Shown piece after piece: positions 2,335 to 18,116 of a stretch of 32,000 nucleotides of DNA. The stretch lies in assembly GCF_000010625.1 (NCBI RefSeq), contig NC_010296.1, positions 330,001 to 362,000 of the forward strand, written 5' to 3'. The notes beneath the pieces are model-generated. The model saw only the letters and a program-made list of their open reading frames with translations. It searched no databases and was not told the origin of the DNA. A program made the position numbers and the translations under genes. How positions within the stretch are numbered: position 1 is the stretch's first letter; every line of letters begins with the position of its first letter. Origin of the DNA: Microcystis aeruginosa NIES-843. Its GTDB lineage: Bacteria; Cyanobacteriota; Cyanobacteriia; Cyanobacteriales; Microcystaceae.

Positions 2335-2416
2335 TTGATAAGGGGGGTGTCTGACAACTTTTAACGCCTACCTACTTATTTATTCGCTCAACCCAAGCTA
2401 CGAAATTAGACTTTGA

Positions 2417-2758
2417 TTAAGTATTGACTGATTCTAGATGCCTTAAAATCTGTTTTCTTAAATCATCCAAATAATTTTCTACCACCTCCCAAACTGTATT
2501 AAGGTCAATTCCCCCTAAATAATCATGTACTAAAATATTCCTAAAACCAGAAATATTACGCCAGTCAACATTGGGAATATTTGCCTTTAATTCCTCCGAA
2601 AGCCTTTGAGTTGATTCTGCCAAAGTTTGTAAGCGTCTAATGATAGCATCGCTGATCATTGAATTAGCAAAAAACTCCTGTTTTCCTCCTTGGGAATAGT
2701 CCTTAATTTTATCAATACAGTCTAAAATATATTCAAGATAAACTCGATCTTCATTCAT
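2417..2758 (-). CDS. hepT: HepT (DUF86/HEPN) toxin of a MntA/HepT module
   Basis: 113 aa with the HEPN R-x4-H motif in FRNILVHDY. Its 4-nt ATGA overlaps the upstream nucleotidyltransferase gene. Confidence 0.85.
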   Translation of the reverse strand: MNEDRVYLEYILDCIDKIKDYSQGGKQEFFANSMISDAIIRRLQTLAESTQRLSEELKANIPNVDWRNISGFRNILVHDYLGGIDLNTVWEVVENYLDDLRKQILRHLESVNT

Positions 2759-3048
2759 AACTTAATTGCCTCCTTTAAGATTCGCTGTTTAATTAGATGA
2801 TGAAGGCTTTTTTCAGTTACTACATCCACTTTACACCCTAAGAGAGCCTCTAAATCAACTAATAATCCACCGGGAAACCAAGGGGATGTTTTAGCTAAAT
2901 CATAATCAATTAAAAAATCAATATCACTATTTTCGGTTTCCTCACCTCTAGCAACGGAACCAAATACACGCACATTAAAAGCACCATGTTTGGTGGCAAT
3001 TTTTAGGATATCCTCTCGTTTGTCTTGTATGAGTTGTTTTAAGGTCAT
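2755..3048 (-). CDS. mntA: MntA-type minimal nucleotidyltransferase antitoxin
   Basis: The motif FGSVARGEETENSDIDFLID is the GS-x-RG...DxD polymerase-beta-type NTase motif. The track ORF extends to 3084. The ATG at 3048 (MTLKQLIQ...) is the more conventional start. Confidence 0.85.
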   Translation of the reverse strand: MTLKQLIQDKREDILKIATKHGAFNVRVFGSVARGEETENSDIDFLIDYDLAKTSPWFPGGLLVDLEALLGCKVDVVTEKSLHHLIKQRILKEAIKL

Positions 3049-3142
3049 AAAATAACATCCATCCCGAAGGTTTTTAATGAACAATTAACAGACTAGACTA
3101 GAAAAAACTAAATACTGATAACTCACCCCCCCACTTATTGCC

Positions 3143-3283
3143 CTAATTGCTGCAAAAATTGCATCACCTTTTCATCAGTTGCCATATTATTCTGTTGGTG
3201 GAATAATATAGCTGCTTGTTATAGATCAATTTTTGCTTTTTCGGTTTGTTTTAATTTGGCATATAAAAGACCACGACTACGGA
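3143..3283 (-). repeat. ~141-bp repeat, copy A: degenerate 3' end of a TPR-protein gene
   Basis: Near-identical to 4039-4179 and 5034-5174. The minus-strand translation reads RSRGLLYAKLKQTEKAKIDL*QAAIIFRQQNNMATDEKVMQFLQQLG, with an in-frame TAA. This is the typical C-terminal tail of cyanobacterial TPR proteins. Confidence 0.75.
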
Positions 3284-3323
3284 CTTTATGAACGGTGGCT
3301 AAATAAGTAATCATTGATTTCTC
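3284..3323 (-). pseudogene. Orphan hicB 5' fragment (RBS plus the first 10 codons) fused to repeat copy A
   Basis: ctttatgaacggtggctaaataagtaatcattgatttctc is identical to 4783-4822, the start of the intact hicB (MITYLATVHK). Confidence 0.8.
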
Positions 3324-3326
3324 ATT

Positions 3327-3671
3327 TCAGGTTCGCATTAGATTATATTCTTCGCGGATTGATGAAGTTAGAGATTCCAATAAGATTAATTTTTCCTCAA
3401 TTGACAGGTTTTTTCCTTGTTTAATTAATGTTTGTAAAGGCATTTTTTTTAAATCAAATTCAGGCACAAGTAGAGCCAATTCTTGTGTTTGTTGATTTTG
3501 TAAGTCAGTAATTAATTCTTGTAAAAATAAAGAATCATTACTTAAGTCCGAAATTTCATCTTCATAGTTTTCGAGAGCTTCTATTTGTTGAATACGGTCA
3601 CTATAATTTTTGAGAAGGGATTCGAGAGCTTCGATAATAAATTGGATGTCTTTAAATGATAGAGTTTTCAT
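3327..3671 (-). CDS. Hypothetical acidic helical protein, candidate immunity/antitoxin for the upstream Tse2-like gene
   Basis: 114 aa, rich in D/E/L/Q with a predicted all-helical character. It starts 8 nt after the upstream stop (TGAGGTAAACTATG). No family was recognised. Confidence 0.4.
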   Translation of the reverse strand: MKTLSFKDIQFIIEALESLLKNYSDRIQQIEALENYEDEISDLSNDSLFLQELITDLQNQQTQELALLVPEFDLKKMPLQTLIKQGKNLSIEEKLILLESLTSSIREEYNLMRT

Positions 3672-3679
3672 AGTTTACC

Positions 3680-4027
3680 TCAACTTACACGATAAAAAAA
3701 TTCACCAATTACCCTTAAAGCGTGTTGATAGGTTTCTATTGACATGGGAAATAAGGGTTTCCATAACCAGTGATTACCTCGATCATTAATTAATTCTAGC
3801 TCACTGGGAATAGAAATTCCCCGATCTAGTTTCCACCAGTTGTTTCCTATTCCCTGAACGGAAAAGGTCGAAATTCCCCCCGGTGTTTGTCCATCGACAA
3901 GGGTTTCTTTTACCCATATTTGCCCATTATTTTCATAGATAGCAATATCTTTGTTAGGACGAACATAATCCATTCTGGGAGATGTAGCATTACCTCTACG
4001 GTATAAATCAACGGGTGTTTTTATCAT
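3680..4027 (-). CDS. Tse2-like putative ADP-ribosyltransferase toxin
   Basis: 115 aa. DLYR(10), GGIST(53-54)F and IPSE(76)LE(78)LIND...HWLWKPLFPM line up with my recollection of P. aeruginosa Tse2 (LYR, GGTSVF, IPPDLKV...HYTIMPAKPM). Together they form an R / S-T / E-x-E pattern. Confidence 0.5.
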   Translation of the reverse strand: MIKTPVDLYRRGNATSPRMDYVRPNKDIAIYENNGQIWVKETLVDGQTPGGISTFSVQGIGNNWWKLDRGISIPSELELINDRGNHWLWKPLFPMSIETYQHALRVIGEFFYRVS

Positions 4028-4038
4028 TTGTCACCTCC

Positions 4039-4505
4039 CTAATTCGCGTAAAAGTTGCATCACCTTTTCATAAGTTGCCATATTATCCTGTTGGCGGAAT
4101 ATTATAGCCGCTTGTTATAGATCAATTTTGGCTTTTTTGGTTTGTTTTAATTTGGCATATAAAAGACCACGACTACGGATTATAGTAATCATAGCAATTA
4201 TCGTCGATTGGGTTGACCCAAGGAAACCCAACAAAAAGATTCAGACGGATTTAGATTTTGGGTGTTGGGTTTCGCTTTTCCTGAGAATTGAGAGGTTTTC
4301 TTTAACATATTTATTCGCTCAACCCAACCTACGAAACTACGAAACTCTAAAGTAGGTTGGGTTGAGGCACGAAACCCAACAATACACCCAAGTAAACCCA
4401 ACAAAAAGATTCAGACGGATTTAGGTGTTGGCTGTTGGGTTTCGCTTTTCCTGAGAATTGAGAGGTTTTCTTTAACATATTTATTCGCTCAAACCAAGCT
4501 AGGGA
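4039..4505. repeat. Composite junction repeat module, copy B: TPR-tail remnant plus two hairpin units plus tails
   Basis: 4039-4179 is the TPR-tail remnant. Hairpin units lie at 4227-4274 and 4397-4444. A second hairpin type, gtaggttgggttgaggcacgaaacccaac, is at about 4343-4379. The tail cttttcctgagaattgagaggttttctttaacatatttattcgctcaa occurs twice. Confidence 0.8.
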
Positions 4506-4511
4506 CTGCAC

Positions 4512-4808
4512 CTAGTTTTTTACACACAATTCCTGATGGTTTAAAATAGCTTCTGATACCTCAATGAGCAGAAAAGCGATCGCATCTTGATGATCCGCGT
4601 CGGTTAAAATGGTTTCGAGGGTGCTAGGGGTGGGAATTTCGTCCCCATCTGCCAACATAAAGGAAATATGACCTTTTAAGGCTTCAGTTGCCATTTTTTT
4701 CGCTTCTTCGATGGTTTCTCCTGCACTAATACAACCCGGAAAGTCATAAAATTGTACCCCATAATCACTATGGTTATCTTTATGAACGGTGGCTAAATAA
4801 GTAATCAT
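4512..4808 (-). CDS. hicB: HicB-family antitoxin
   Basis: 98 aa. The sequence MITYLATVHKDNHSDYGVQFYDFPGCISAGETIEEAKKMATEAL is a typical HicB N-terminal domain. It lies downstream of hicA. Confidence 0.85.
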   Translation of the reverse strand: MITYLATVHKDNHSDYGVQFYDFPGCISAGETIEEAKKMATEALKGHISFMLADGDEIPTPSTLETILTDADHQDAIAFLLIEVSEAILNHQELCVKN

Positions 4809-5427: not shown

Positions 5428-8400
5428 CTACTGATTAACATAATTTTTTAGTTCAGGATGTGCTAATAATTTTTGAACATCAGCAAAAATTTTGTTTGTC
5501 CGTAAAATCTTTTTGAGGAAATCAATATTGGCAAGTTGAGAATTAATACTTAAAGCACTTTCAGCGAGTTTTAATGCTTTATCTTTTTCGCCTTGATGAT
5601 AAAAAGCAACGGCTAAAGCTAATTGAATTTCGGCTGATTGATTGTTAATTATTAGTGCTTTTTCCCATTGTTTAATTGCTTCACTTATTGACCCTTGTTC
5701 ATACTTAACTAAGCCGATGCCCATCATAGCAAACCAAGCATTTTTGTTAATTTTAATAGCTTTGTTGTAATCAGAGAGGGCTAATTCGTATTTTTGTTGG
5801 AGATAGTAAAGATTCCCCCGATTGTTGTAAGCCTCAACTAAATTAGGATTAATTTCAATAGCTTTGTTGAAGTCAGCTAAAGCTAATTCGTCTTTTTGTT
5901 GGTAATAGTAAATACCCCCCCGACCTAAGTAAGCCTCAGCTAAATTAGGATTAATGTCAAGAGCTTTGTTGTAGTCAGCTAAAGCTAATTCGTATTTTTG
6001 TTGGAGATAGTAAAGATTCCCCCGATTGCTGTAAGCCATAGCTAACTTAGAATCAAGTTCAATAGCTTTGTTGAAGTCAGCTAATGCTAATTCGTATTTT
6101 TGTTGGTCATTGTAAATATTCCCCCGATTGCTGTAAGCCATAGCTAACTTAGAATCAAGTTCAATAGCTTTGTTCCAGTCAGCTAAAGCTAATTCGTATT
6201 TTTGTTGGTTATAGTAAATACTCCCCCGATTGTTGTAAGCATTAGCATAATTAGGATTAATGTCAATGGCTTTGTTGTAGTCAGCTAAAGCTAATTCGTA
6301 TTTTTTTTGGTAATAGTAAAGCTCCCCCCGACCAAAGTAAGCCATAGCATAATTAGGATTAATTTCAAGAGCTTTGTTGAAGTCAGCTAAAGCTAATTCG
6401 TATTTTTGTTGGAGAAGGTAAATACCCCCCCGACCTAAGTAAGCCTCAGCTAAATTAGGATTAATTTCAAGAGCTTTGCTGTAGTCAGCTAAAGCTAATT
6501 CGTATTTTTGTTGGAGACTGTAAATACTCCCCCGACCTAAGTAAGCCTCAGCTAAATTAGGATTAATTTCAAGAGCTTTGCTGTAGTCAGCTAAAGCTAA
6601 TTCGTATTTTTGTTGGAGACTGTAAATACCCCCCCGACCTAAGTAAGCCAGAGCCAAATTACGATTAAGTTCAATAGCTTTGTTCCAGTCAGCTAAAGCT
6701 AGTTCGTATTTTTGTTGGAGAAGGTAAAGAAGCCCCCGATTGTTGTAAGCCACAGCATAATTAGGATTAATGTCAATGGCTTTGCTGTAGTCAGAGAGGG
6801 CTAAATCGTATTTCTGCAAGTCTTTGTAAAGATTCCCCCGATTGTTGTACGTCTCAGCATAATTAGGATTAATGTCAATAGCTTTGCTGTAGTCAGAGAG
6901 GGCTAAATCGTATTTTTTTTGGTTAAAGTAAAGAAGCCCCCGATTGTTGTAAGCCACAGCATAATTAGGATTAATGTCAATGGCTTTGGTGTAGTCAGAG
7001 AGGGCTAAAATGTCAATGGCTTTGGTGTAGTCAGAGAGGGCTAAATCGTATTTCTGCAAGTCTTTGTAAAGATTCCCCCGATTGTTGTACGTCTCAGCAT
7101 AATTAGGATTAATGTCAATGGCTTTGCTGTAGTCAGAGAGGGCTAAATCGTATTTCTGCAAGTCAGAGTAAAGATTCCCCCGATTGTAGTAAGCCTTAGC
7201 ATCATTAGGATTAATGTCAATGGCTTTGCTGTAGTCAGAGAGGGCTAAATCGTATTTCTGCAAGTTATAGTAAAGATTCCCCCGATTGTAGTAAGCCACA
7301 GCATCATTAGGATTAATGTCAATAGCTTTGCTGTAGTCAGCTAAAGCTAATTCGTATTTTTTTTGGTCAGAGTAAAGATTCCCCCGATTGTTGTAAGCGT
7401 TAGCATAATTAGGATTAATTTTAATGGCTTTGTTCCAGTCAGAGAGGGCTAAATCGTATTTCTGCAAGTTATAGTAAAGATTCCCCCGATTGCCATACCA
7501 AGCAGCACGGGGAGCGAGATCAATTGCCTGAGTAATCGCCGCTAATCCCTCATCATAGCGTTTTAATTGACTTAATACTACATATTTCTCGTTATAGTGA
7601 TTGGGGTTATTGGGAAACAGAGAAATCGCCTGATTAATCACCGTTAAGGCTTGCTCATAATTTTCTAAATAGCGATAAACAACACTTTGCTTTTGTAAAA
7701 TACTACTGTGAAAGTTCTTTAAATCTTCCCGTTTAGGTAAGGTATTAATCGCTTGTTGCAAAGCTTCTATAGCTGTTTGATATTTACCTAAATAACCTAA
7801 CGCCAATCCCTTCCCATACCAGGCTAAATAGACATTCTTGGGGTCATTTTGCTTAATCGCTTCATCAAAGGCTTTAATTGCTTCCTCATACCTTTCTAAC
7901 CGCCATAATTGTCCTCCCCTTTGTATCCAAATATCCGCCTTCGCATTGGTATTAGGGACAATAACACCAGTAATCGCTTGAATAATTTCTTGTTGTTGTT
8001 GCGGACTAACTTGGGGTTGAGCAGTGGTTAATAATTGCGGTTTTACCTTCAATCTTTCTTGCAATCCGATAAAAGTGCTAATGGGAATCCCTAAACTAAA
8101 CCCTAGCTGAATTTTCCCTACCCCTGCTGTTTCCGAACTTCCATGAATCCCTATTACTCTCCCCTGAGAGTCTAAGACTGCACCGCCACTCATGCCCCCA
8201 AATGTGATGCTGGTATAAACTAATTCATAGCCTCCGGTTAAAGAAGCAACACTTTGTAATGTTCCTCCTTGTTCATTGCTTAAGTCACTTTGGCGGGTTT
8301 GTAGTAATCCCCCTTCTTTATCGTGAATTGTACCGCCACTAAACAACCATTTCGAGGGATTGTCGCCAATTTTGGGGAAGCCTGCGGCAAAAACAAAATC

Positions 8401-9567
8401 ACCGGTATTTGGGTTATAATTCGCTATTTCCGCAACGGGATAATTGTCTCGGCTTTCAAACTGAAAAACTGCTAAATCTACCCCTTCCTGCCGGATGATG
8501 GTGCTTTTCTCGATTTTTCGAGTTTTGCCGTCCCTGGTGACGACGGTGTAGGTGAAATTGACACAGGTTTTCTCCTCGGCGATTTTTTCGCAGAGGACGT
8601 GAGCGGCGGTTAAAACTGTGTAAATATTCCCTTTTTTAGCGATAATTACGCCACTTCCATTGGCAATTACGCCACTTCCATTGGCTTTACTGCTACTATC
8701 AATCCGCACGGTGAAACCCTTGGCTTTTGTTTCTAATTGGGCGATATAGACAGTAGGGGCGGTGGTTTCTATATCGGGGTTCACCTGCGGTAGGGGTAGG
8801 TTATAGGCGCTGAGGATTTCAGGACGGATGTAGGTTAATAGGGTATGAAGGGAAATGCCCCAGTTAACCGCTCTCATCTGTTGGATTTCTTCGTCTGTGG
8901 GTTTTGTGCCGTCTTCGTAGGTGTAGTTAGAGAGAATCGGATGGGCCGATCGCCCGTTAATGCCGATTAACTCCCCATCGACAAAAATGCCGCCGCCACT
9001 CATTCCCTGCACGATATCGCCACTATAACCGACGCTGTAGCCATCCCGGAGGGGTCGATCGCTCACCTGTTCGAGGGTTCCCTTTGTCGTCCGATACTGT
9101 CCCGTTTCGGCAACATATCCCGCGGCCACCACTTCTAAACCGATCCTGTTTTGATTGATGGTAAACTTCGCGATGGTGGCGATCGAATAGTCCCGGGTAT
9201 CGCTAAACTCCAGCAGAGCGAGATCTTGATTCTCCGATAGGGAATTGGGGACAATGCGGGCCGCACGGCTGTGGCCGTCGTAAGTTTGTACCTGTAGGGT
9301 TTTCGTGTTGCGGGTAACGTGGGCGTTGGTTAGGACAAGGTAATTATCGCCTTTTTTAGCGATAATCGTCCCCGATCCCCGATTTGTCTCGCTAGTAATC
9401 CGAACGGTGACTCGTTGTAGGATTTGCTCCTCGGTAAGCTCCCGATCGCCCTGTGCCGTCAGAATGGGATGATTAGAAATATTTCCGGCAGCCGGGGTGA
9501 TAAGGGTTAACCCGGGTTGAGGCAGTAGGGAGAAAAGAAGGATGAGGGCGATCGAAGGTTTGATCAT
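5428..9567 (-). CDS. Exported protein with two trypsin-like (S1/Trypsin_2-type) serine protease domains and a long TPR array
   Basis: N-terminal signal-like segment MIKPSIALILLFSLLPQPGL. Domain 1 carries TNAH(83)V, D(115)LALL and GMS(190)GGG. Domain 2 carries TAAH(323)V, D(364)LAVF and GGMS(460)GG. Roughly two dozen 34-aa TPR units run from about residue 545 to 1345. Confidence 0.9.
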   Translation of the reverse strand: MIKPSIALILLFSLLPQPGLTLITPAAGNISNHPILTAQGDRELTEEQILQRVTVRITSETNRGSGTIIAKKGDNYLVLTNAHVTRNTKTLQVQTYDGHSRAARIVPNSLSENQDLALLEFSDTRDYSIATIAKFTINQNRIGLEVVAAGYVAETGQYRTTKGTLEQVSDRPLRDGYSVGYSGDIVQGMSGGGIFVDGELIGINGRSAHPILSNYTYEDGTKPTDEEIQQMRAVNWGISLHTLLTYIRPEILSAYNLPLPQVNPDIETTAPTVYIAQLETKAKGFTVRIDSSSKANGSGVIANGSGVIIAKKGNIYTVLTAAHVLCEKIAEEKTCVNFTYTVVTRDGKTRKIEKSTIIRQEGVDLAVFQFESRDNYPVAEIANYNPNTGDFVFAAGFPKIGDNPSKWLFSGGTIHDKEGGLLQTRQSDLSNEQGGTLQSVASLTGGYELVYTSITFGGMSGGAVLDSQGRVIGIHGSSETAGVGKIQLGFSLGIPISTFIGLQERLKVKPQLLTTAQPQVSPQQQQEIIQAITGVIVPNTNAKADIWIQRGGQLWRLERYEEAIKAFDEAIKQNDPKNVYLAWYGKGLALGYLGKYQTAIEALQQAINTLPKREDLKNFHSSILQKQSVVYRYLENYEQALTVINQAISLFPNNPNHYNEKYVVLSQLKRYDEGLAAITQAIDLAPRAAWYGNRGNLYYNLQKYDLALSDWNKAIKINPNYANAYNNRGNLYSDQKKYELALADYSKAIDINPNDAVAYYNRGNLYYNLQKYDLALSDYSKAIDINPNDAKAYYNRGNLYSDLQKYDLALSDYSKAIDINPNYAETYNNRGNLYKDLQKYDLALSDYTKAIDILALSDYTKAIDINPNYAVAYNNRGLLYFNQKKYDLALSDYSKAIDINPNYAETYNNRGNLYKDLQKYDLALSDYSKAIDINPNYAVAYNNRGLLYLLQQKYELALADWNKAIELNRNLALAYLGRGGIYSLQQKYELALADYSKALEINPNLAEAYLGRGSIYSLQQKYELALADYSKALEINPNLAEAYLGRGGIYLLQQKYELALADFNKALEINPNYAMAYFGRGELYYYQKKYELALADYNKAIDINPNYANAYNNRGSIYYNQQKYELALADWNKAIELDSKLAMAYSNRGNIYNDQQKYELALADFNKAIELDSKLAMAYSNRGNLYYLQQKYELALADYNKALDINPNLAEAYLGRGGIYYYQQKDELALADFNKAIEINPNLVEAYNNRGNLYYLQQKYELALSDYNKAIKINKNAWFAMMGIGLVKYEQGSISEAIKQWEKALIINNQSAEIQLALAVAFYHQGEKDKALKLAESALSINSQLANIDFLKKILRTNKIFADVQKLLAHPELKNYVNQ
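5745..7500 (-). repeat. 102-bp-periodic, near-identical TPR-coding repeat array inside the CDS
   Basis: Two unit subfamilies are seen: NRGNLYxxLQKYDLALSDYSKAIDINPNYAxAY and GRGxIYxLQQKYELALADYxKALEINPNLAEAYL. Many units share runs of more than 40 identical nucleotides. Confidence 0.9.
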
Positions 9568-9595
9568 GGCTTTTACCTAGCTATTTTAAATAGTA

Positions 9596-9626
9596 GAAAA
9601 CGGGTTTCTCCGAGAAACCCGTTTTC
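9596..9626 (-). terminator. Palindromic hairpin element between the CHAT-CHASE2 gene and the protease-TPR gene: possible attenuator/terminator or RNA-processing site
   Basis: On the minus strand it reads gaaaacgggtttc-tcgga-gaaacccgttttc (13-bp stem, 5-nt loop) followed by tactattt, a weak U tract. The same element occurs downstream of ftsH at 16722-16752. Confidence 0.5.
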
Positions 9627-9632
9627 TGTGCG

Positions 9633-12101
9633 TTACTCAACGGATTTAGTATAAGAACGAAGAAAAAAGAAGATACCGGAGGTGGTGAGAAGTGCGATCG
9701 CTGGGGGAATAATCGGAACCCAGAGACCGAAATAACTAAAGAGAAGCCAACCGATACCAGTAAGGGAAATCACAGTGATCGCCACTGTCAAAAGTACCGT
9801 TTTTACCCGAAGAAAACGCCACGTTAACAATCCCCCCACCAGGGACCAACCCAGCACCCAGAAAGCCTCCTGTAGGGGATTCCAGAAAGCGATCGAGGTA
9901 CGTTTTCCTTCCATTGTATCGAGAATTTGACTGACTGCGTGCGCGTGCAAATAAACCCCCGGAATTGCTTCCGATGGGTTGCGACTAAAGGGGGTTAAAA
10001 AATCATCGATCCCGGGTTCTGTTACTCCAATCAGGACAATTTTTCCCCGGACCGATTCGGAATTAAAACCCGGATCTAAAACCTGTTGGAGAGATTTTTT
10101 CGGGGCAATTTTTGTGATTGCATCGCTGCCATTATCGGCGATTCGACGGTAAGCGAGCATAACTTGACGACCGGATCGGGTATCGGATTGACTGGTTCTA
10201 TAGGGGCCGCGGTTGGATTGCAGCCAGTCACCGAGATGAGTATCCCCGATATTAATTTCTAGAATTCCCCGCTGCAGTTTATTGCAGTCAAAATCTTGAT
10301 TCTGGGATTCTAGATATCGTTTGGCAATTAGGAGACTAAAACTAGGAGCATAATCTTTAAAATTACAGGACATTGAGTCAACTGTGGCCAAAGAATCCGG
10401 GGGAAGACAGGGAGATGTGCGATCGAGTTTTGCCTGATATAAAAAACGACGAATTCGGGGAACTCCGGCAATGGTTTCGTCTGGGACTATGTTACTAAAA
10501 CCACTCTGATTTTTTGGCAGTTCCGGGGGTGGGGGAAATCCGTCCGGTTGCGGGTAATTATTAAACTTACAAATCGAGATAAAATTAGGAGTATTTTGTA
10601 ATTGTTTGGCTAGGGGTGGATAATCTTGACTGGCAGCGATGGGACGGAGGATATCTAAGGCGATAATTTGCGGTTCGTAGGGCAGTAATTTATTTAAAAG
10701 CTGCGATAATGCTTCTCCTGCGAGGGAACGTTTTCGATCGCTTCCGGGTATTGTTGGTCTTTTCATACCCATGCGATCTTGATATTCCCAATCTTGGCGA
10801 TCAATGGTAATAATTAATAATCTTTCGTCGGGTTTATCTTTGGGTTTTAGTTGCATCAGGCGATCATAAATATTTAATTCTAAGGGTTCTAAAATTCCTG
10901 TTTCTCTTATTGCCAAGACTGTCATCGTTACGGCTAAACCTAAACCGAAAGTTAGAGCAAATCGTCGCCAATTTTGTTGTTTTTGAGGGGAGTTACTGAA
11001 ACTATGCCAAGTGGGGGGTTCTTCGGTGGGATTGGGGCAAACTACGGGCAGCCAACTGGCACAGGGATAGTCTTTTTCCCAGTCATCGTGCAGATTTTTT
11101 TGGGCTTCATGTACGGCGCTATAGAGAGATTTATTATTGGTAAAAGCGGTTAAAAAGTATTGCAGAAATTTGGGAGAAACGGGATCGGGTAATTTCTCGC
11201 GCATAAAGATTAGATGGGGTAATGCCATCCCTTTTTCCCGTGATAGTTGTTGTGCTAAACCAATACCATCACAGGAGTTAAATATCGCTAACTTTAACCC
11301 GTTTTTAGTGGCTTCTCCCAGGGAAAAGCTAAAATCAGCTATCTTTAATTTATGAGTTTCTGTTAGTTGAATTTCGCAATCTTGACCATCTTCTGTACTG
11401 GCACTATGACCGCTAAAAAAGAGGATATTCCAAGTTTCTTGACGCAATAACTGATTTAATTTTTGCGGGTGAGGGGCTTTTTCCCAGATAATTTCGGCTC
11501 CTGCTTTTCCCGCAATATCGTCTAAAGTTTTGCGATCTTCTTCGAGAAATCTTAAGTCGGTGGCATAGCCTAAAATGGCTAAAATCCGAATTTTTTCATG
11601 ATTTTTTAATTGTCTGGTTAAGGTATCGTATTCTGAGACAATAATGGCTATATCTGCGCCAGTATTTTGGAGGATTTCCCATTTTTCCCAGGGGAATCTT
11701 TGCAGCCAAATATTATCGGTTTGTAACCAGATACGAAAGTTATTGCCAGAGCGCAGAATTGCGGTTTTGATCGGTTCAAATTCTGGGCTATTATTCAACC
11801 ATTTGTTTAAGTTATCCTCAAATAATTTGGCTTTTTCTTGGCAGTTTTTAAAAACTAAACTCTGCTGAGAACTATTGGTAATTTGTTGGGGATTGCTATC
11901 TTTTAAGACTTTAAAAAATCCCTCTAATTCACTATAGTGACGTTGCCATTGACGGTAAAGAGTTAATAACTCTAAATTAGCTGGTAGCCTTGCTTTGATC
12001 ACAGTTTGGGGACGAGAATTAAGATCGGGACGAATTTCTAATTTTACTTTAAATCCCCGATCAAATGTGCCATCTAGTTCGAGAGTTAAGAGTTTAATCA
12101 T
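9633..12101 (-). CDS. Membrane protein with an N-terminal cytoplasmic caspase/CHAT-like domain, one TM, an extracytoplasmic CHASE2 domain and three C-terminal TMs
   Basis: FFSGH(232)S and IFNSC(277)DG form a His/Cys dyad in an alternating beta-alpha context. TM1 is FALTFGLGLAVTMTVLAI (381-398). A ~350-aa segment then matches the CHASE2 position and length. Three hydrophobic helices follow, and the protein ends at residue 822. Confidence 0.7.
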   Translation of the reverse strand: MIKLLTLELDGTFDRGFKVKLEIRPDLNSRPQTVIKARLPANLELLTLYRQWQRHYSELEGFFKVLKDSNPQQITNSSQQSLVFKNCQEKAKLFEDNLNKWLNNSPEFEPIKTAILRSGNNFRIWLQTDNIWLQRFPWEKWEILQNTGADIAIIVSEYDTLTRQLKNHEKIRILAILGYATDLRFLEEDRKTLDDIAGKAGAEIIWEKAPHPQKLNQLLRQETWNILFFSGHSASTEDGQDCEIQLTETHKLKIADFSFSLGEATKNGLKLAIFNSCDGIGLAQQLSREKGMALPHLIFMREKLPDPVSPKFLQYFLTAFTNNKSLYSAVHEAQKNLHDDWEKDYPCASWLPVVCPNPTEEPPTWHSFSNSPQKQQNWRRFALTFGLGLAVTMTVLAIRETGILEPLELNIYDRLMQLKPKDKPDERLLIITIDRQDWEYQDRMGMKRPTIPGSDRKRSLAGEALSQLLNKLLPYEPQIIALDILRPIAASQDYPPLAKQLQNTPNFISICKFNNYPQPDGFPPPPELPKNQSGFSNIVPDETIAGVPRIRRFLYQAKLDRTSPCLPPDSLATVDSMSCNFKDYAPSFSLLIAKRYLESQNQDFDCNKLQRGILEINIGDTHLGDWLQSNRGPYRTSQSDTRSGRQVMLAYRRIADNGSDAITKIAPKKSLQQVLDPGFNSESVRGKIVLIGVTEPGIDDFLTPFSRNPSEAIPGVYLHAHAVSQILDTMEGKRTSIAFWNPLQEAFWVLGWSLVGGLLTWRFLRVKTVLLTVAITVISLTGIGWLLFSYFGLWVPIIPPAIALLTTSGIFFFLRSYTKSVE

Positions 12102-12116
12102 TAAGTTTTTCCTCGC

Positions 12117-13244
12117 TTATACTTGTAAATATTCGGTGACTCTTGCCGATTCTAAAGCCACTTCAATGAAGAATTTATCCCCCAATTCAGCATCAAATCG
12201 ATAACGAATAAATTCATCGTTATCTGTGGCAATTACTTCTCGAAAAACCTGACCATTTTCGGTGAGAATAGTTAATTTTAAATGGGGGGGTAAAGTGCTT
12301 GTTTCTCCGGTGGGGTAAACAGTCGCTTGCAGGCTAAATACTTCTTCAATTTTAGCGATAGTAATCATCAAAGCGAGGGAATTTCCCAGTAATTCTATTC
12401 CTAAATCTTTGATGCGTTTAATTTCTGTATTTTTGAAAGCTGGAACCAGTGACAGTGAGCTAAAATCGAGGATACTTTGCCAATCAATGGGGAAATTATC
12501 GGCAAACCAATTGGTTAACTTGACGGGGGATTTTTGCCGACGGGTAATTAAAATTTTTCTCCAGTTACTATTGACGATAACTGCTGCCCATTCCTGAAAA
12601 GTAACGGCTTTTCTGGGAAAGATTAACTGAGGATTAGCTAAGATGTCTAGTAAGGTTGTCAATCTATCTAAAGATAGTTTTTCTTCCATCTTTTCCGGTT
12701 CAATCTTAACTGGTTGTAATTGACACTCTCCCCATAAATTCAAAGAATCTGATCCTGATTGCAGTTGATTTCTCGGTAGAGAGTAGTTAAGATTACGCTT
12801 AATATATTGTCCTTTTTCCTTAATATCTTTATGGGTAGTATAACCCCAAATTCTCAGATAACTTTCGGCAGTGTTTACCTGTACCGCTAGATAATAATCA
12901 CCAATTAATTGAGGAATATCTACCCATTCTTGAGGAATTTCGATCGCTTCTAGATCCAGAGTTTCGCTGGCAATAACTATTACTGACTTTTCGCCTAATT
13001 TAACGGTAAAACCATTAACTCCTAGTTGCCAGAAATCCTCTTGATTTTCTACTAAGCTAACCCCAGGCATCCCTGACTGTAGATAGTTAAAAATAACTTG
13101 TTGACAAAGATAATTAACATAAAATCTCTGACGAATACTGGCATCAGTAAAACTGGCACTTTTTGCCCAACTGATCTCTTGAATATCTGCGGGTATTTCT
13201 AGCCAAATGCTATCAGGAGTTAGTTCTAACCAATCATTAACCAT
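12117..13244 (-). CDS. DUF1822-like protein, function unknown
   Basis: The track ORF reaches 13295, but the ATG at 13244 (MVNDWLELTPD...) is preceded by GGAGGA at a 6-nt spacing and sits 2 nt after the upstream stop. The N-terminal pattern ...RQRFYVNYLCQQVIFNYLQ and ...DYYLAVQVNTAESYLRIWGYTTH resemble what I recall of the cyanobacterial DUF1822 family. Confidence 0.55.
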   Translation of the reverse strand: MVNDWLELTPDSIWLEIPADIQEISWAKSASFTDASIRQRFYVNYLCQQVIFNYLQSGMPGVSLVENQEDFWQLGVNGFTVKLGEKSVIVIASETLDLEAIEIPQEWVDIPQLIGDYYLAVQVNTAESYLRIWGYTTHKDIKEKGQYIKRNLNYSLPRNQLQSGSDSLNLWGECQLQPVKIEPEKMEEKLSLDRLTTLLDILANPQLIFPRKAVTFQEWAAVIVNSNWRKILITRRQKSPVKLTNWFADNFPIDWQSILDFSSLSLVPAFKNTEIKRIKDLGIELLGNSLALMITIAKIEEVFSLQATVYPTGETSTLPPHLKLTILTENGQVFREVIATDNDEFIRYRFDAELGDKFFIEVALESARVTEYLQV

Positions 13245-13246
13245 AA

Positions 13247-14494
13247 TTAATCCTCCTGAGTTGTTGCGCTGGTTTGATAGTAGTATGTTAGCCATGGTTC
13301 TATTGCCTTACTAATAACTTCTCTATCGTGAGACTGGGAAGGAATATGCAGGTTTTCGCTGGCCCAGGGTAAAAACTTTTTAGCGAGGTGACGATAAACT
13401 TTATCCAGTTCCCTAGAAACCTGATATTGTTTGATAACCACCGTGGTAATTTCTGTAATCTTAGCGGCAATTGCCACTTGTCCCAACCCGGAACCATAAG
13501 TCATCTCTAGAATTAACTGAATTTGCGGATGCAGTTTTGCCTGTTGCGGCTGCTGACAAATCTGTTCAATTTCTGCCCCTAACCAAGCTAGAATTTTTTG
13601 GTGGTTTTGTTGCGAATCGAGAAAATTTTCCGCCGCTTCTAATTGCTGCCAAGGGTTATTATGGAGAGTATCTTCGATCATTTCTTCCCTCGTGCTACTT
13701 TCCCCATCCCCGAAAGGTTGCTGTAGAGAAATTGTTTTTCCTTGGGGAAATAAATAATCAGAAATAGCTTGTCCCGCATCCTTTAACCATCGGGTAATTG
13801 TCGCAGAACTGATTTTGATGGTAGAGTGGCTATCCGAGTTATAAGCAGCGGCGATTTTTTGCCAGATTTCTGGACTAGGTTCCTGAATTTTACCATCGGT
13901 TTTGATTTTTGCCTGGGCATAAATTTCTTTATAGTAATCCCAAGCTAAAAGGTAATTTTCGAGAGTTTCTCCCACTAATCCCCTCGCCAGGAGAGCTTGG
14001 CTGAGACGCGCTCCGGTAGAATTAAGTAGTAGGCTCCAAGTATTATGGCCGAATGCTTGACTAATCTGACGGATGCGATCGATTAAGCGATATTTAATCC
14101 TCTGAGTGGCAAAATTATCGAAGCGAGTAGAGAATAAAGGCTTAAAGTCAGCTAAGATAGCCTCAAAACCAAGAATTCCTTCGTTAAAGTAGTCTTCGAT
14201 CTGATAATCCAGTTTAGCTTGATATTTTTGATAGATTTCGGCAGCAGCCCAGTAGCAAGGTTCCTGTAAATAAGCGTATAAATGCCCACGAAAAAGATGA
14301 TTTTTGGAACCGTGATTCTGATACTGTTGGTGAAAGAATAGGGACCAATAATCCTCGGACTCGACATTAGGATCGATTGGGCCATAGCTTTCCATGTTAC
14401 GACGCAAACGCCGATCGCAATTCCATTCTGTCCTATTTTGTCGCAAAACTAAAAAGCAACAAAACTTCTCCAGCAAAGTCTCTCGTTTTTTCAT
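13247..14494 (-). CDS. Divergent sigma-70-family-like protein
   Basis: 415 aa. The region-2-like segment is DYFNEGILGFEAILADFKPLFSTRFDNFATQRIKYRLIDRIRQ (residues ~100-143). The region-4-like HTH segment is LILEMTYGSGLGQVAIAAKITEITTVVIKQYQVSRELDKVYRHLAKKF (~327-374). Confidence 0.6.
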   Translation of the reverse strand: MKKRETLLEKFCCFLVLRQNRTEWNCDRRLRRNMESYGPIDPNVESEDYWSLFFHQQYQNHGSKNHLFRGHLYAYLQEPCYWAAAEIYQKYQAKLDYQIEDYFNEGILGFEAILADFKPLFSTRFDNFATQRIKYRLIDRIRQISQAFGHNTWSLLLNSTGARLSQALLARGLVGETLENYLLAWDYYKEIYAQAKIKTDGKIQEPSPEIWQKIAAAYNSDSHSTIKISSATITRWLKDAGQAISDYLFPQGKTISLQQPFGDGESSTREEMIEDTLHNNPWQQLEAAENFLDSQQNHQKILAWLGAEIEQICQQPQQAKLHPQIQLILEMTYGSGLGQVAIAAKITEITTVVIKQYQVSRELDKVYRHLAKKFLPWASENLHIPSQSHDREVISKAIEPWLTYYYQTSATTQED

Positions 14495-14767
14495 CTAGCT
14501 ACTCCCCGTGGAGGTCAACTAAACTCTCTATCGTTCCACTTGCAGCTTTTATGCAGTATTTTGGCATTTTGTTACAAATTGATCATACTCGGTCTAGGAG
14601 AGTCACATTGACATACTCCCCCACCCCCAACAGCTAACCCCCAGGGAGGACTACGAGGGGCATCTTTTAAAAAAAACCTGTCCAGTGTTCCTGAGAAACG
14701 TTAACATAAGTTAACAACCCCTTGACAACCGATAAAATCATCCTCAATTTATCAGGAGTTCGACAGC

Positions 14768-16621
<1,854 letters not shown>

Positions 16622-16646
16622 GTTTTGTAACATTTTCTTGACAAAC

Positions 16647-16674
16647 AGCATCCATCAGGGTGCTGTTTTTTTTG
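16647..16674 (+). terminator. Intrinsic terminator of ftsH
   Basis: The stem cagcatcc / gggtgctg has 8 bp with one G-U pair. The loop is atca, and eight T residues follow, 26 nt after the stop codon. Confidence 0.8.
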
Positions 16675-16721
16675 ATAGCTGTTAATCGGGTGCATCTCAA
16701 TTTTTGTCAATCCCACACAGA

Positions 16722-16752
16722 GAAAACGGGTTTCTCGGAGAAACCCGTTTTC
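16722..16752 (+). repeat. Second copy of the palindromic hairpin element
   Basis: gaaaacgggtttctcggagaaacccgttttc followed by tact is identical to the minus-strand reading of 9596-9626, including flanking bases (cacagagaaaacggg vs gcacagaaaacggg). Confidence 0.85.
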
Positions 16753-16797
16753 TACTCATGTAATTTCGGATTTTTAAGCGGAAACTTTCTCCTAAAG

Positions 16798-16853
16798 TTG
16801 ATTCAAGGTAGGGTTGATTCAAGGTAGGGTTGATTCATGAATCAACCCTACCC
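16798..16853. repeat. 16-bp tandem repeat running into a spacer-less perfect palindrome that resembles abutted IS terminal repeats
   Basis: ttgattcaaggtaggg occurs twice (16798-16829). It is followed by ttgattca|tgaatcaaccctaccc, so the palindrome is ggtagggttgattca/tgaatcaaccctacc. The arm matches the ISAs1 IR at 911-928 in about 14 of 17 positions. Confidence 0.7.
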
Positions 16854-17007
16854 AAACCCCGAAGCGCATTAGTTTTTCGGTGGGATGATTACAGATAGCT
16901 GCTGATATATCTGTAATAATTTAAGAGTCACTGATAATTAATGTGGGATGTACCCCTGTTAATCAGCTTCACAATACCCAGTTTAAATGCGTCTTAAGTA
17001 GGGAGGC

Positions 17008-17083
17008 ACAATTATTTGTAGGATGGGTTAGCGGTAGCGCAACATGAGCGGACGTTGGGTTTCATGCTTCAACCCAACCTACG
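17008..17083. repeat. REP-like repeat of the gttgggtttc...caacccaacctacg type
   Basis: gtaggatgggttagcggtagcgcaacatgagcggacgttgggtttcatgcttcaacccaacctacg contains the hairpin gttgggtt/aacccaac seen in the island modules. Confidence 0.6.
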
Positions 17084-17168
17084 TTGATCTTATATTTAAT
17101 TCCACCCACCCACTTAGCTTAACAGTCCTGTCTTTTCACTGTTCACTGATTACTGTCATGTAGCATTG

Positions 17169-18116
17169 ATGACTACTTCCTCTTTACCTATTTTAATTGT
17201 TATTTGTGGGGCAACTGCCACAGGAAAATCCAGTTTAGCCCTACAATTGGCCGAAAAGTTTAATTCAGTAATTCTCAGTGCCGATTCCCGACAAATCTAT
17301 CGAGAATTTAATATTGGTACTGCTAAACCTAGCTTAGAAGAATGTCAGCGGATTCCCCATTATCTAATTGATATTTGTGATCCTCAAGATAATTTTACCC
17401 TAGCACAGTACCAAGAACAAGCTGAGGATTTAATCAACAATCTCCACTATTCTCCCCTGTTTTTGGTCGGTGGTACGGGACTTTATATCAAGTCCATTGT
17501 CAAAGGTTTAAAAATACCGAGGGTTTCTCCTCAAGCGGATTTAAGACGGCAATTACAAGCTTTAGGGCAATCCTATCTTTATCAAATTCTGACGCAGGTA
17601 GATGAGGAGGCTGCTAAAAAAATTCATCCCCATGATCAGGTCAGGACTTTACGCGCTTTAGAGGTTTTTTATCTGACAGGAAAACCTATCTCTAGTCAGC
17701 AGGGAGAAAATCCTCCCACTTATCCGATTTTACAAATTGGTTTAGATTGTTCCCCAGAAAGTTTAGGCAAGCGGATCACTGTTCGTACTGATCAAATGAT
17801 CGCCAGGGGATTAGTAGCAGAGGTGCAGAATTTGGGGGATAAATACGGTTGGGATTTGCCACTTTTGCAGACTTTGGGTTATGCAGAGATTAAGCAATAT
17901 CTGCTCGGGGAAATTTCTTTAGAACAGGCGATCGATCTAATTATCCTCCACACCCGTCAATTTGCCAAACGTCAGCGCACTTGGTTTCGTGCCGATGCTG
18001 ATATTATCTGGTTTCCCGTCGATAAAGAAAATTTATTGGAATCGGTGGAACGAGAAATTATTTTGTTTCTTGAGGGGTTGTCAAGGCCCGATATAAAAAC
18101 ACATCATCCTGATTAA
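17169..18116 (+). CDS. miaA: tRNA dimethylallyltransferase MiaA
   Basis: P-loop CGATATGKS, followed by SADSRQIYREFNIGTAKPS and FAKRQRTWFR. The ATG is at 17169; the track starts at TTG 17166. Confidence 0.95.
   Translation: MTTSSLPILIVICGATATGKSSLALQLAEKFNSVILSADSRQIYREFNIGTAKPSLEECQRIPHYLIDICDPQDNFTLAQYQEQAEDLINNLHYSPLFLVGGTGLYIKSIVKGLKIPRVSPQADLRRQLQALGQSYLYQILTQVDEEAAKKIHPHDQVRTLRALEVFYLTGKPISSQQGENPPTYPILQIGLDCSPESLGKRITVRTDQMIARGLVAEVQNLGDKYGWDLPLLQTLGYAEIKQYLLGEISLEQAIDLIILHTRQFAKRQRTWFRADADIIWFPVDKENLLESVEREIILFLEGLSRPDIKTHHPD

Follow-up and report, generated by a model that had tools for sequence, protein, structure and literature searches.

We analyzed a cluster of 4 genes on the minus strand of a 32,000-nt stretch of the Microcystis aeruginosa NIES-843 genome (contig NC_010296.1, positions 330,001 to 362,000; hereafter the window, in which position 1 is the first letter). 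Judged by its sequence, the core triad of the cluster, encoding a sigma-like protein, a DUF1822 protein, and a membrane protein with CHAT and CHASE2 domains, is 1 Microcystis copy of a computationally defined cassette that is widespread in Cyanobacteria. This cassette is best read as controlling a sigma factor through regulated proteolysis, for which both CHAT and Lon proteases offer experimental precedents, and with slightly less than even confidence we propose that a CHASE2 sensor would prompt the CHAT protease to cut a partner protein and thereby release a dedicated sigma factor. The product of the fourth gene, an exported protein with 2 trypsin domains and tetratricopeptide repeats (TPRs), is best seen from its gene neighborhoods as an optional periplasmic accessory of the membrane CHAT protein.

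The 4 genes run head to tail, as in the initial annotation, with open reading frames (ORFs) for the sigma-like gene at 13247-14494 (415 aa), the DUF1822 gene at 12117-13244 (375 aa from the ATG at 13244; an in-frame ATG at 13295 would lengthen it to 392 aa, overlapping the sigma-like gene by 49 nt), the CHAT-CHASE2 gene, or gene 3, at 9633-12101 (822 aa), and the trypsin-TPR gene, or gene 4, at 5428-9567 (1379 aa). Pfam, NCBIfam, and profile matches upheld the domain calls that the annotation had made for all 4 proteins, and the DUF1822 gene was 94-97% identical to those of 5 Microcystis assemblies. The translational coupling suggested for all the junctions is indicated at 2 of them, the sigma/DUF1822 junction (CAGGAGGATTAATTATG), where the TAA stop at 13249-13247 is followed by the next ATG at 13244, and the DUF1822/CHAT junction, where the stop at 12117 is separated from the ATG at 12101 by 15 nt (GCGAGGAAAAACTTA). 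No such coupling is indicated between genes 3 and 4, because the 65-nt gap from 9633 to 9567 holds a hairpin.

The CHAT-CHASE2 protein opens with an EACC2 domain (residues 1-105; 11787-12101, minus strand), identified with a hidden Markov model (HMM) built in this analysis and the description available from Kaur et al., not with those authors' own profile. The CHAT domain (residues 110-367; 11001-11774, minus strand; Pfam E 2e-10) and the CHASE2 domain (residues 392-758; 9828-10928, minus strand; Pfam E 5e-48) follow. The predicted catalytic dyad was present, with the minus-strand codons of His232 at 11406-11408 and of Cys277 at 11271-11273, and its motifs, G-H-S and N-S-C-D-G, were invariant in 81 of 81 CHAT family members. 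Hydrophobicity placed a first transmembrane (TM) segment at residues 380-398 and about 3 TM helices at the C-terminus, and the predicted topology fits a cytoplasmic CHAT and an extracytoplasmic CHASE2 domain. The N-terminal ~105 residues were conserved in 89 ORFs, always ahead of this type of CHAT and including STAND-WD40 variants, and were kept in all CHAT proteins adjoining DUF1822. Further, the C-terminal modules carried by these EACC2-CHAT relatives included CHASE2, STAND, STAND-WD40, and COP23 plus trypsin. A PDB sequence search with the CHAT-CHASE2 protein gave no match.

In the sigma-like protein a conserved N-terminal extension of ~70 aa precedes a sigma2 domain and a sigma3-like middle domain, which a disordered linker (residues 252-286) joins to a sigma4 domain. 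The extension carries the motif MxxR..FSTF..W..DPRL ahead of sigma2 and was modelled at a predicted local distance difference test (pLDDT) score of 78-90. The window protein had no Pfam match, and NCBIfam model TIGR02937 reached E 8.5e-11 and 41.8 bits (cutoff 42.9), with the match stretched across residues 73-373. Many of its 46 homologues reach Pfam Sigma70_r4, r4_2, or r2, and the family consists of cyanobacterial proteins of ~400 aa named "sigma-70 family" in their source annotations. A PDB search with the single sequence returned only noise; a 37-member family profile was required, and it matched the solved sigma-F, FliA, SigF, WhiG, and RpoS (region 2 plus regions 3-4) with a best E of 9e-13. 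With the AlphaFold2 (AF2) model of the protein (pLDDT 81.5), all 50 of the 50 listed Foldseek matches were sigma factors, mostly over about 335-385 aligned columns. The presence of both sigma2 and sigma4 places the protein in the sigma-70 family. A minimal 2-domain extracytoplasmic function (ECF) sigma factor (group 4, about 170-220 aa) was rejected on the length of 415 aa, the score below the TIGR02937 cutoff, the sigma3-like domain, and the N-terminal extension, and the profile and fold matches to RpoS and FliA, which run through the sigma3-like middle domain, argue against the ECF class. Profiles and model together indicate that this is a genuine 3-domain, group-3-like sigma factor with an N-terminal extension. 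The initial annotation, which described a divergent sigma factor of about twice the ECF size, was right on the sigma identity and the 415 aa, but the sigma2-sigma3-sigma4 order is group-3-like and not that of an oversized ECF.

Pfam DUF1822 matched the product of gene 2 at E 4e-63. The family numbers about 2,100 clusters (50% identity, E <= 1e-10), and some members carry a HEAT insertion; no second Pfam family recurred (E <= 1) in 46 homologues. The AF2 model (pLDDT 85.8; predicted template modelling score 0.65) begins with an alpha/beta domain (residues 10-160), which is followed, after a linker of low confidence (160-190), by a helical segment (190-250) and a beta-sandwich (274-374). The protein has no TM helix and is therefore predicted to be cytoplasmic. 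We found no PDB sequence or profile match, and Foldseek returned only generic Ig-like matches to the last ~100 residues of the model, with no whole-chain, TPR, Csx30, or anti-sigma match. As modelled, DUF1822 is a mixed alpha/beta plus Ig-like fold without a solved relative and is not a TPR protein. By analogy with the systems compared below, we propose that it may serve as both the sigma-binding partner and the protease substrate.

To place the triad, loci were surveyed with DUF1822 as the anchor and 1 genome per GTDB species. At least 588 DUF1822 loci were found, almost all of them cyanobacterial, and the best 80 of these were annotated with HMMs built in this analysis. A sigma-like gene lay directly upstream of DUF1822 in 70 of 77 loci and an EACC2-CHAT gene directly downstream in 61 of 66 (52 of the CHASE2 type and 9 of other types), which bears out the predicted co-conservation of the 3 genes. 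The sigma and DUF1822 frames usually overlap, most commonly by 17 nt. Over 61 triads the pairwise distance matrices of the 3 proteins correlated at r 0.84-0.95, and the 3 genes therefore travel as a cassette.

Several loci departed from the simple triad by expansion. In 3 of about 21 kb each (L022, L032, and L046) a single sigma-like gene was surrounded by several tandem DUF1822 genes, every one of which had a short (~400 aa) or long EACC2-CHAT gene after it, and several genomes had 2 or 3 separate triads, for example Scytonematopsis contorta (L030, L052, and L062). Such tandem and paralogue expansion is reminiscent of conflict systems. Additional TPR-CHAT genes, two-partner-secretion (TPS) domain genes, and a DUF928 gene adjoin some triads (L001 at 2142-4718 and 12539-16280; L003 at 7244-9838 and 15568-19280).

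The initial annotation knew of no experimentally established function for the gene set; its core triad has already been described computationally by Kaur, Iyer, Burroughs, and Aravind (eLife 2021, PMC8195603). The available text of that paper describes, from comparative genomics only, EACC2-caspase proteins with variable C-termini, including CHASE2 with TM helices and fusions to trypsin-like peptidases, whose genes adjoin an "ECF sigma factor" gene and a gene for DUF1822, termed "a TPR protein"; it places these proteins among counter-invader systems and proposes a logic in which a stimulus activates the caspase and leads to sigma-mediated transcription. All the features of the system as given there recur in the window, namely EACC2 plus CHAT, a variable C-terminus (CHASE2 with TM helices), and neighboring sigma and DUF1822 genes, so that the 3 genes, the constant EACC2 plus caspase/CHAT N-terminus, and the logic from sensor through caspase to transcription are the same. 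Two assignments differ from the text available to us: the AF2 model of DUF1822 is an alpha/beta plus beta-sandwich protein with no TPR, and the sigma factor is 3-domain and group-3-like. In the same available text the exported double-trypsin-TPR gene, the COP23 module, the promoter motif, and the 2 natural fusions described below (L169 and P0350) are absent; the nature of the sigma factor and of DUF1822, the accessory status of gene 4, both fusions, and the candidate promoter are thus what the present analysis adds to it. Literature searches for experimental studies of DUF1822, EACC2, CHAT plus CHASE2 plus sigma, and COP23 plus trypsin found none, returning only the 2021 computational paper and an incidental table of single-nucleotide polymorphisms.

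A natural 2-gene version of the system was found in L169 (1355-5727; GCA_964546515.1, CAZJNL010000025.1). Its first gene encodes P0350, a 626-aa fusion of a sigma4/LuxR-type helix-turn-helix (HTH), a TRADD-N domain, and DUF1822, in which the TRADD-N domain and a long linker part the HTH from DUF1822. After 30 nt follows the gene for an 820-aa fusion composed of EACC2, CHAT, 1 TM helix, COP23, and trypsin, the last with the His, Asp, and Ser residues present, so that COP23 plus trypsin occupies the position of CHASE2.

Searching for k-mers enriched upstream of sigma-like genes, we identified a bipartite motif, TGCATAA followed at a fixed distance by CGATA or a CCCATAA-type block. In the window it takes the form TGCATAA-N15-CGATA (TGCATAAAAGCTGCAAGTGGAACGATA) at 14529-14555 on the minus strand, 61 nt upstream of the sigma-like ATG. 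In 23.4 kb of sense-strand sequence lying upstream of sigma-like genes we counted 21 copies of TGCATAA, where the remainder of the loci predicts 2.0. The bipartite motif numbered 29 copies in L001-L088, compared with 3-6 after local shuffling, and was present in 21 of 78 sigma upstream regions against 1.8% of random windows, in counts that are not phylogenetically independent. It was limited to the Microcystis-type and long-sigma clades and, within the unit, was particular to its beginning. Three loci without a sigma gene (L037, L055, and L064) carried it upstream of DUF1822, and in L007 and L008 it stood upstream of a COP23 gene preceding the sigma gene. We infer that the motif is the cassette's own candidate promoter and that the cassette is probably autoregulated.

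Other upstream features were seen beside this motif. In L019 a TPR gene of 871 aa, located 3' of the CHAT-CHASE2 gene, has a copy 61 nt upstream. The sigma-like genes of ~396 aa in Nostocales (L073, L057, L054, L069, L068, and L072) have in common a TTGATAGTTGCTTAAGTTCGGATCAATT block about 32 nt before the sigma ATG, and AAGTTCGGAT, likewise conserved in the Nostocales clade, is a feature of its own. A pairing of AAGTTCGG and CTGCATAA as -35 and -10 elements was rejected for lack of co-occurrence.

The domain architectures, the catalytic residues, the gene order with overlapping or abutting frames, the fusions, and the upstream motif are read directly from the sequences; the biochemical steps given here, together with the substrate, the kind of signal, and the regulon, are all deduced from them by analogy. 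In the resting state, DUF1822 would hold the 3-domain sigma factor inactive. A signal outside the cytoplasmic membrane would be sensed by CHASE2 and would switch on the cytoplasmic CHAT domain, possibly through self-processing or oligomerization. CHAT might then cut DUF1822, most plausibly in the flexible linker at residues 160-190, the N-terminal extension of the sigma factor being the alternative site. The freed sigma factor would join RNA polymerase and transcribe from promoters of the TGCATAA-N15-CGATA type, including the cassette's own. In Microcystis, gene 4 at the 3' end of the cassette would supply a periplasmic accessory that creates or removes the CHASE2 stimulus or acts as an output. 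Regulated proteolysis had already been proposed in the initial annotation, and the conserved triad together with the precedents of Craspase, CalpL/T/S, and SAVED-CHAT speak for that core, but not for the obligate role that it gave to gene 4.

An anti-sigma role, in which DUF1822 would bind the sigma factor directly and keep it from core RNA polymerase, draws indirect support from the sigma/DUF1822 coupling, the co-evolution of the cassette, and the P0350 fusion. Several observations weigh against this proposal. Binding of DUF1822 to the sigma factor is deduced from gene adjacency and from a single fusion to a generic HTH, and hhalign aligned the HTH of P0350 to region 4 of the sigma-like family at a nonsignificant E of 0.13. 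By sequence and fold searches DUF1822 resembles neither a known anti-sigma factor nor Csx30, and no conserved cleavage site was identified. In 7 loci (L027, L031, L042, L056, L037, L055, and L064) DUF1822 had no detectable sigma-like gene within 10 kb; EACC2-CHAT lay downstream in all of them except L056, leaving 6 loci with DUF1822 and CHAT alone. In all 7 the sigma factor is either encoded elsewhere or too divergent for our HMM. Relatedness among the loci inflates the statistics, and the candidate promoter, found in only 21 of 78 loci, is absent from the large ~396-aa Nostocales clade. The motif is also absent from stand-alone COP23/trypsin modules (1 chance-like match in 856 kb), which gives no sign that the gene 4 family is part of the sigma regulon.

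Gene 4 encodes a signal-like hydrophobic segment (residues 6-24), 2 trypsin domains (about 8788-9405 and about 8098-8670, minus strand), and a TPR array assigned by Pfam (about 5458-7950, minus strand). Pfam recognized 2 Trypsin_2 domains at E 2e-41, and both of the catalytic triads that had been predicted were present, H83/D115/S190 in the first domain and H323/D364/S460 in the second, whose histidine is H323; both were invariant in 9 orthologues. The predicted number of about 2 dozen TPRs agrees with the length of the 830-aa array, which has room for about 24, and 19-20 of them were scored by Pfam. The TPR DNA (5747-7492) is a tandem repeat of 102 nt (1 TPR) in about 17 copies of 78-87% identity, with a perfect 36-nt duplication at 6973-7045 that creates a truncated TPR repeat, and a further perfect duplication of 21 nt lies just before trypsin domain 2 (8644-8685; ANGSGVI ANGSGVI). 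At 1379 aa the protein compares with about 840-900 aa for the longest full-length Microcystis orthologues, which points to recent repeat expansion or possibly to an assembly effect.

The double-trypsin N-terminus was 48-90% identical to neighbors of related triads, and the family gave 806 matches, including several Microcystis paralogues, Pannus, Crocosphaera, Anabaena, and Richelia. We surveyed 80 loci from the trypsin side (3 protein look-ups and 77 metagenome contigs) and counted neighbors in the 30 loci of at least 12 kb. COP23 lay near the double-trypsin-TPR gene in 24 of these 30, EACC2-CHAT in 6, and DUF1822 in 4, and a module recurred with the order small TPR protein, ~380-aa trypsin, COP23, and double-trypsin-TPR protein, of whose last member gene 4 is a clear orthologue. 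No COP23 gene or ~380-aa trypsin gene was found in the window; other Microcystis contigs have the COP23 module about 4.7 kb farther along (L097) or at another genomic site (L089), and the module in L089, a second Microcystis paralogue, is on its own, without a triad in the vicinity. From the triad side, a trypsin gene was found within 10 kb in only 4 of 49 triads, 3 of them from Microcystis, and gene 4 is accordingly no obligate member of the set, as it had been taken to be. The complete set was seen again, with its genes in other orders, in L005, L007, and L008 and also in the distant lineage L126, and trypsin-TPR genes adjoin EACC2-CHAT genes in unrelated lineages and differing orders (L090, L091, L101, L113, L125, L126, and L138). 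Short DUF1822 paralogues (310-323 aa, without the middle of the Pfam model) lie directly upstream of double-trypsin-TPR genes in L090 (8910-9839), L101 (5903-6847), and L115 (8877-9845), with an EACC2-CHAT-STAND-WD40 gene also near in L090 and L101.

The gene 3/gene 4 spacer contains a perfect 31-nt palindrome (GAAAACGGGTTTCTC-N-GAGAAACCCGTTTTC; 9596-9626). Its stem measures 15 bp (-25 kcal/mol, z -4.1), where 13 bp had been reported, and an identical copy at 16722-16752, 100 nt after ftsH, a degenerate copy near 518-532, and copies in other Microcystis contigs (L009 at 6492, L011 at 6458, and L013 at 13619) speak against a signal specific to this junction. The terminator scan did not call the palindrome because no T-run follows the stem. 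Its insertion altered the 3' terminal codons of gene 3, whose product thereby has 822 aa rather than 820. The junction measured 13 nt in L011, whereas the window and L013 had 65 nt, L012 had 145 nt, and L009, L010, L097, and L106 had 231 nt, each with different inserts: those of 231 nt (L009 at 13606-13838, L010, L097, and L106) resemble miniature inverted-repeat transposable elements, with inverted repeats GGGCGAAGCATTCGG ... CCGAATGCTTCGCCC, and L012 has a palindromic insert of 145 nt with G/C runs (13606-13752). The bare 13-nt junction is likely the ancestral state in Microcystis, and comparison of these sequences indicates that the junction is an insertion hotspot and that the palindrome looks like a small mobile or repetitive extragenic palindromic element. 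The repeated palindrome, its copies elsewhere, and the strain-specific inserts led us to reject a role of the junction hairpin in termination or regulation.

The region 3' of gene 4 (window 1150-4808) is variable and holds many toxin-antitoxin genes. These include a HicB-like antitoxin (4512-4808), a Tse2-like ADP-ribosyltransferase toxin (3680-4027) next to an unannotated ORF of 114 aa (3327-3671), and an MNT/HepT pair (2755-3084 and 2417-2758) whose MNT matches PADLOC PDC-S09; an IS4-type DDE transposase lies at 1150-2271. The surroundings of the cassette also include the chromosomal housekeeping genes ftsH, miaA, and gatB. Adjacency of ftsH to the triad was confined to Microcystis, in line with the earlier suspicion that it might be coincidental, and ftsH was rejected as a part of the system. 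Scans of the window found no Rfam match and no tRNA.

Two readings would draw the exported proteases more closely into the pathway. We consider it doubtful that exported COP23/trypsin proteases and CHAT together form an envelope proteolytic relay on the sigma factor through DUF1822, as an anti-sigma factor of unseen fold, which would make the system an envelope-sensing counterpart of Craspase independent of CRISPR, spread over about two thousand protein clusters in cyanobacteria and with TGCATAA-N15-CGATA as its own promoter type. An obligate trans-envelope relay of all 4 genes, in which the exported trypsin-TPR protein acts on CHASE2 in the manner of a site-1 protease and triggers CHAT and then DUF1822/sigma, is unlikely. 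Both trypsin triads are invariant, the genes are head to tail with a likely ancestral spacer of only 13 nt between genes 3 and 4, CHASE2-type triads in L005, L007, L008, and L126 have trypsin-TPR, COP23, and trypsin genes beside them, and L169 joins CHAT through 1 TM helix to an extracytoplasmic COP23 plus trypsin, but these points meet the scarcity of trypsin genes near triads (4 of 49), the preference of trypsin genes for COP23 (24 of 30) over EACC2-CHAT (6 of 30), the second Microcystis module without a triad, and the lack of a COP23 gene in the window. Further, double-trypsin-TPR genes in Nostocales-type loci flank EACC2-CHAT-STAND-WD40 genes, whose cytoplasmic products have no CHASE2 and no recognized membrane or periplasmic module. 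Because the same proteases accompany these variants, contact between CHASE2 and the TPR protein, which had been put forward as the mode of action, is not a general rule. What stands of the earlier idea of a serine protease working with CHAT across the membrane is the real support from the L169 fusion, but not an obligate role for gene 4. Its link to CHAT nonetheless looks real by the 13-nt junction, the recurrence, the different sensor types, and the fusion, and more than chance.

Equally unlikely, in our estimate, is a conflict, abortive-infection, or cell-death system with the activated caspase-like protease and exported proteases as effectors, which would arrest or kill the cell or attack its neighbors, and sigma/DUF1822 as only a transcriptional side-branch. 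Variable C-terminal sensors (CHASE2, STAND-WD40, STAND, and COP23-trypsin) on a constant EACC2-caspase core would suit it, as would the several copies per genome (3 loci in Scytonematopsis), the tandem DUF1822/EACC2-CHAT pairs in L022, L032, and L046, the flank rich in toxin-antitoxin genes and with an insertion sequence, the rapidly expanding TPR array, and the counter-invader placement in the available text of Kaur et al. 2021. However, PADLOC run on the 4 proteins gave no match for genes 1-3 and only generic protease and TPR matches for gene 4, the surroundings (ftsH, miaA, and gatB) are housekeeping, an extracytoplasmic CHASE2 is odd for detection of an intracellular invader, and the searched literature reported no phage-defence or cell-death phenotype. 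A dedicated and nearly always present sigma factor argues for transcription as the main output.

It is decidedly improbable that CHAT instead activates the sigma factor directly, by removal of its ~70-aa N-terminal extension, in a kind of pro-sigma processing for which pro-sigmaE and pro-sigmaK of Bacillus are the comparison, with DUF1822 as adaptor or scaffold. The conserved extension ahead of sigma2, its modelling at pLDDT 78-90, and the unlikeness of DUF1822 to known anti-sigma factors would allow this, and a cut between the HTH and DUF1822 of P0350 could free the HTH, but we identified no conserved cleavage motif where the extension ends, and in Craspase it is the partner that is cleaved and not RpoE. 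Tight gene coupling, as seen here between sigma and DUF1822, is typical of ECF sigma/anti-sigma pairs. That gene 4 is unrelated to the triad, a periplasmic processing or quality-control protease that landed beside it in the Microcystis lineage, is quite as improbable: most triads lack gene 4, which has its own conserved module with COP23 and the ~380-aa trypsin and no copy of the promoter motif, and the junction tolerates insertions of 52 to 218 nt with both genes kept, but the CHAT-TM-COP23-trypsin fusion in L169, the adjacency to EACC2-CHAT recurring in the 7 loci listed above (L090 to L138), the short DUF1822 paralogues upstream of trypsin-TPR genes, and the trypsin-like peptidase fusions in the available text of Kaur et al. 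stand against it.

If release of a dedicated sigma factor by a sensor-gated CHAT protease is correct, caspase-like control of sigma factors would be not a peculiarity of CRISPR systems but a general and very common cyanobacterial signaling design, wired to sensors as different as CHASE2, STAND-WD40, and COP23-trypsin. A role would thereby be assigned to DUF1822, with its about 2,100 clusters, to the ~400-aa sigma family, and possibly to COP23, and an envelope-sensing pathway would be identified in bloom-forming Microcystis. The analysis supplies objects for its testing in H232 and C277, the candidate cleavable linker of DUF1822, the candidate promoter, and the natural fusions L169 and P0350.

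Among known proteases, HetF is a membrane-associated CHAT protease of Nostoc that is needed for heterocyst differentiation and cell division. It and the gene 3 product are both cyanobacterial CHAT-family proteases, but orthology was rejected on a score of 14.5 bits with NF045509 (cutoff 1200) and a differing architecture. Gene 4 likewise does not belong to HtrA/DegP (Do), with 69.7 bits against the 416 of TIGR02037, no PDZ domain, and 2 trypsin domains plus TPRs. The sigmaE pathway of Escherichia coli (DegS, RseP, RseA, and RpoE; summarized in PMC9825189) shares with the window an envelope protease of trypsin fold and, as proposed here, an inner protease freeing a sigma factor from its inhibitor, and is the kind of cascade that the initial annotation had invoked. 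Gene 4, however, lacks PDZ, the cluster has no gene for a site-2 metalloprotease (S2P), and DegS models scored 43-52 bits on gene 4 against cutoffs above 400, which sets the cluster apart from the DegS/RseP/RseA type; DUF1822, because it has no TM helix, cannot be a membrane-spanning anti-sigma factor cut from both sides.

Closer parallels are found in CRISPR-associated systems. The Lon-type protease CalpL (SAVED-Lon, type III CRISPR) cleaves the anti-sigma factor CalpT bound to the ECF-like CalpS, and a sensor-protease, a sigma partner, and a sigma factor are common to both systems, with cleavage of the partner as the signaling step in the Calp system; CalpL differs in its protease type, its cyclic-oligoadenylate-binding SAVED sensor, its cytoplasmic location, and its CRISPR association. 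The cascade of SAVED-CHAT, PCaspase, and PCc-sigma in a hybrid of type III-B CRISPR and a cyclic-oligonucleotide-based antiphage signaling system (bioRxiv 10.1101/2023.06.23.546230) has a CHAT protease on top, a second protease, and a sigma-bound partner at its end, and is the nearest precedent for a locus with 2 proteases and 1 sigma factor. Both of its proteases are cytoplasmic and caspase-like, whereas the second protease of the window is an exported serine type and optional.

In Craspase (Cas7-11 with the TPR-CHAT protein Csx29, Csx30, and RpoE; PMC9825189, PMC10028731), the CHAT protease Csx29 cleaves Csx30, which binds RpoE at about 0.2 uM, and RpoE itself is not cleaved (PMC9825189). 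The sensor is RNA-guided Cas7-11 in Craspase and CHASE2, in the same polypeptide as CHAT, in the window; the sigma factor of the window is about 400 aa with 3 domains; and DUF1822 had no sequence or whole-chain fold match in the PDB, which includes Craspase complexes. Unlike the CRISPR/cas setting of Craspase, the window has no CRISPR-like tandem array, no cas gene, and no ORF of Cas7-11 size outside the cluster, and with neither a PADLOC match for genes 1-3 nor a Csx30-type match the cluster falls outside type III-E CRISPR Craspase. In our proposal the 2 systems would share a sensor-gated CHAT His/Cys protease, a cytoplasmic sigma-binding substrate in the locus (here DUF1822), and transcription as the output. 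After the 2021 paper the existence and general logic of the cyanobacterial system are no surprise; it is large and widespread, and its logic parallels that of Craspase.

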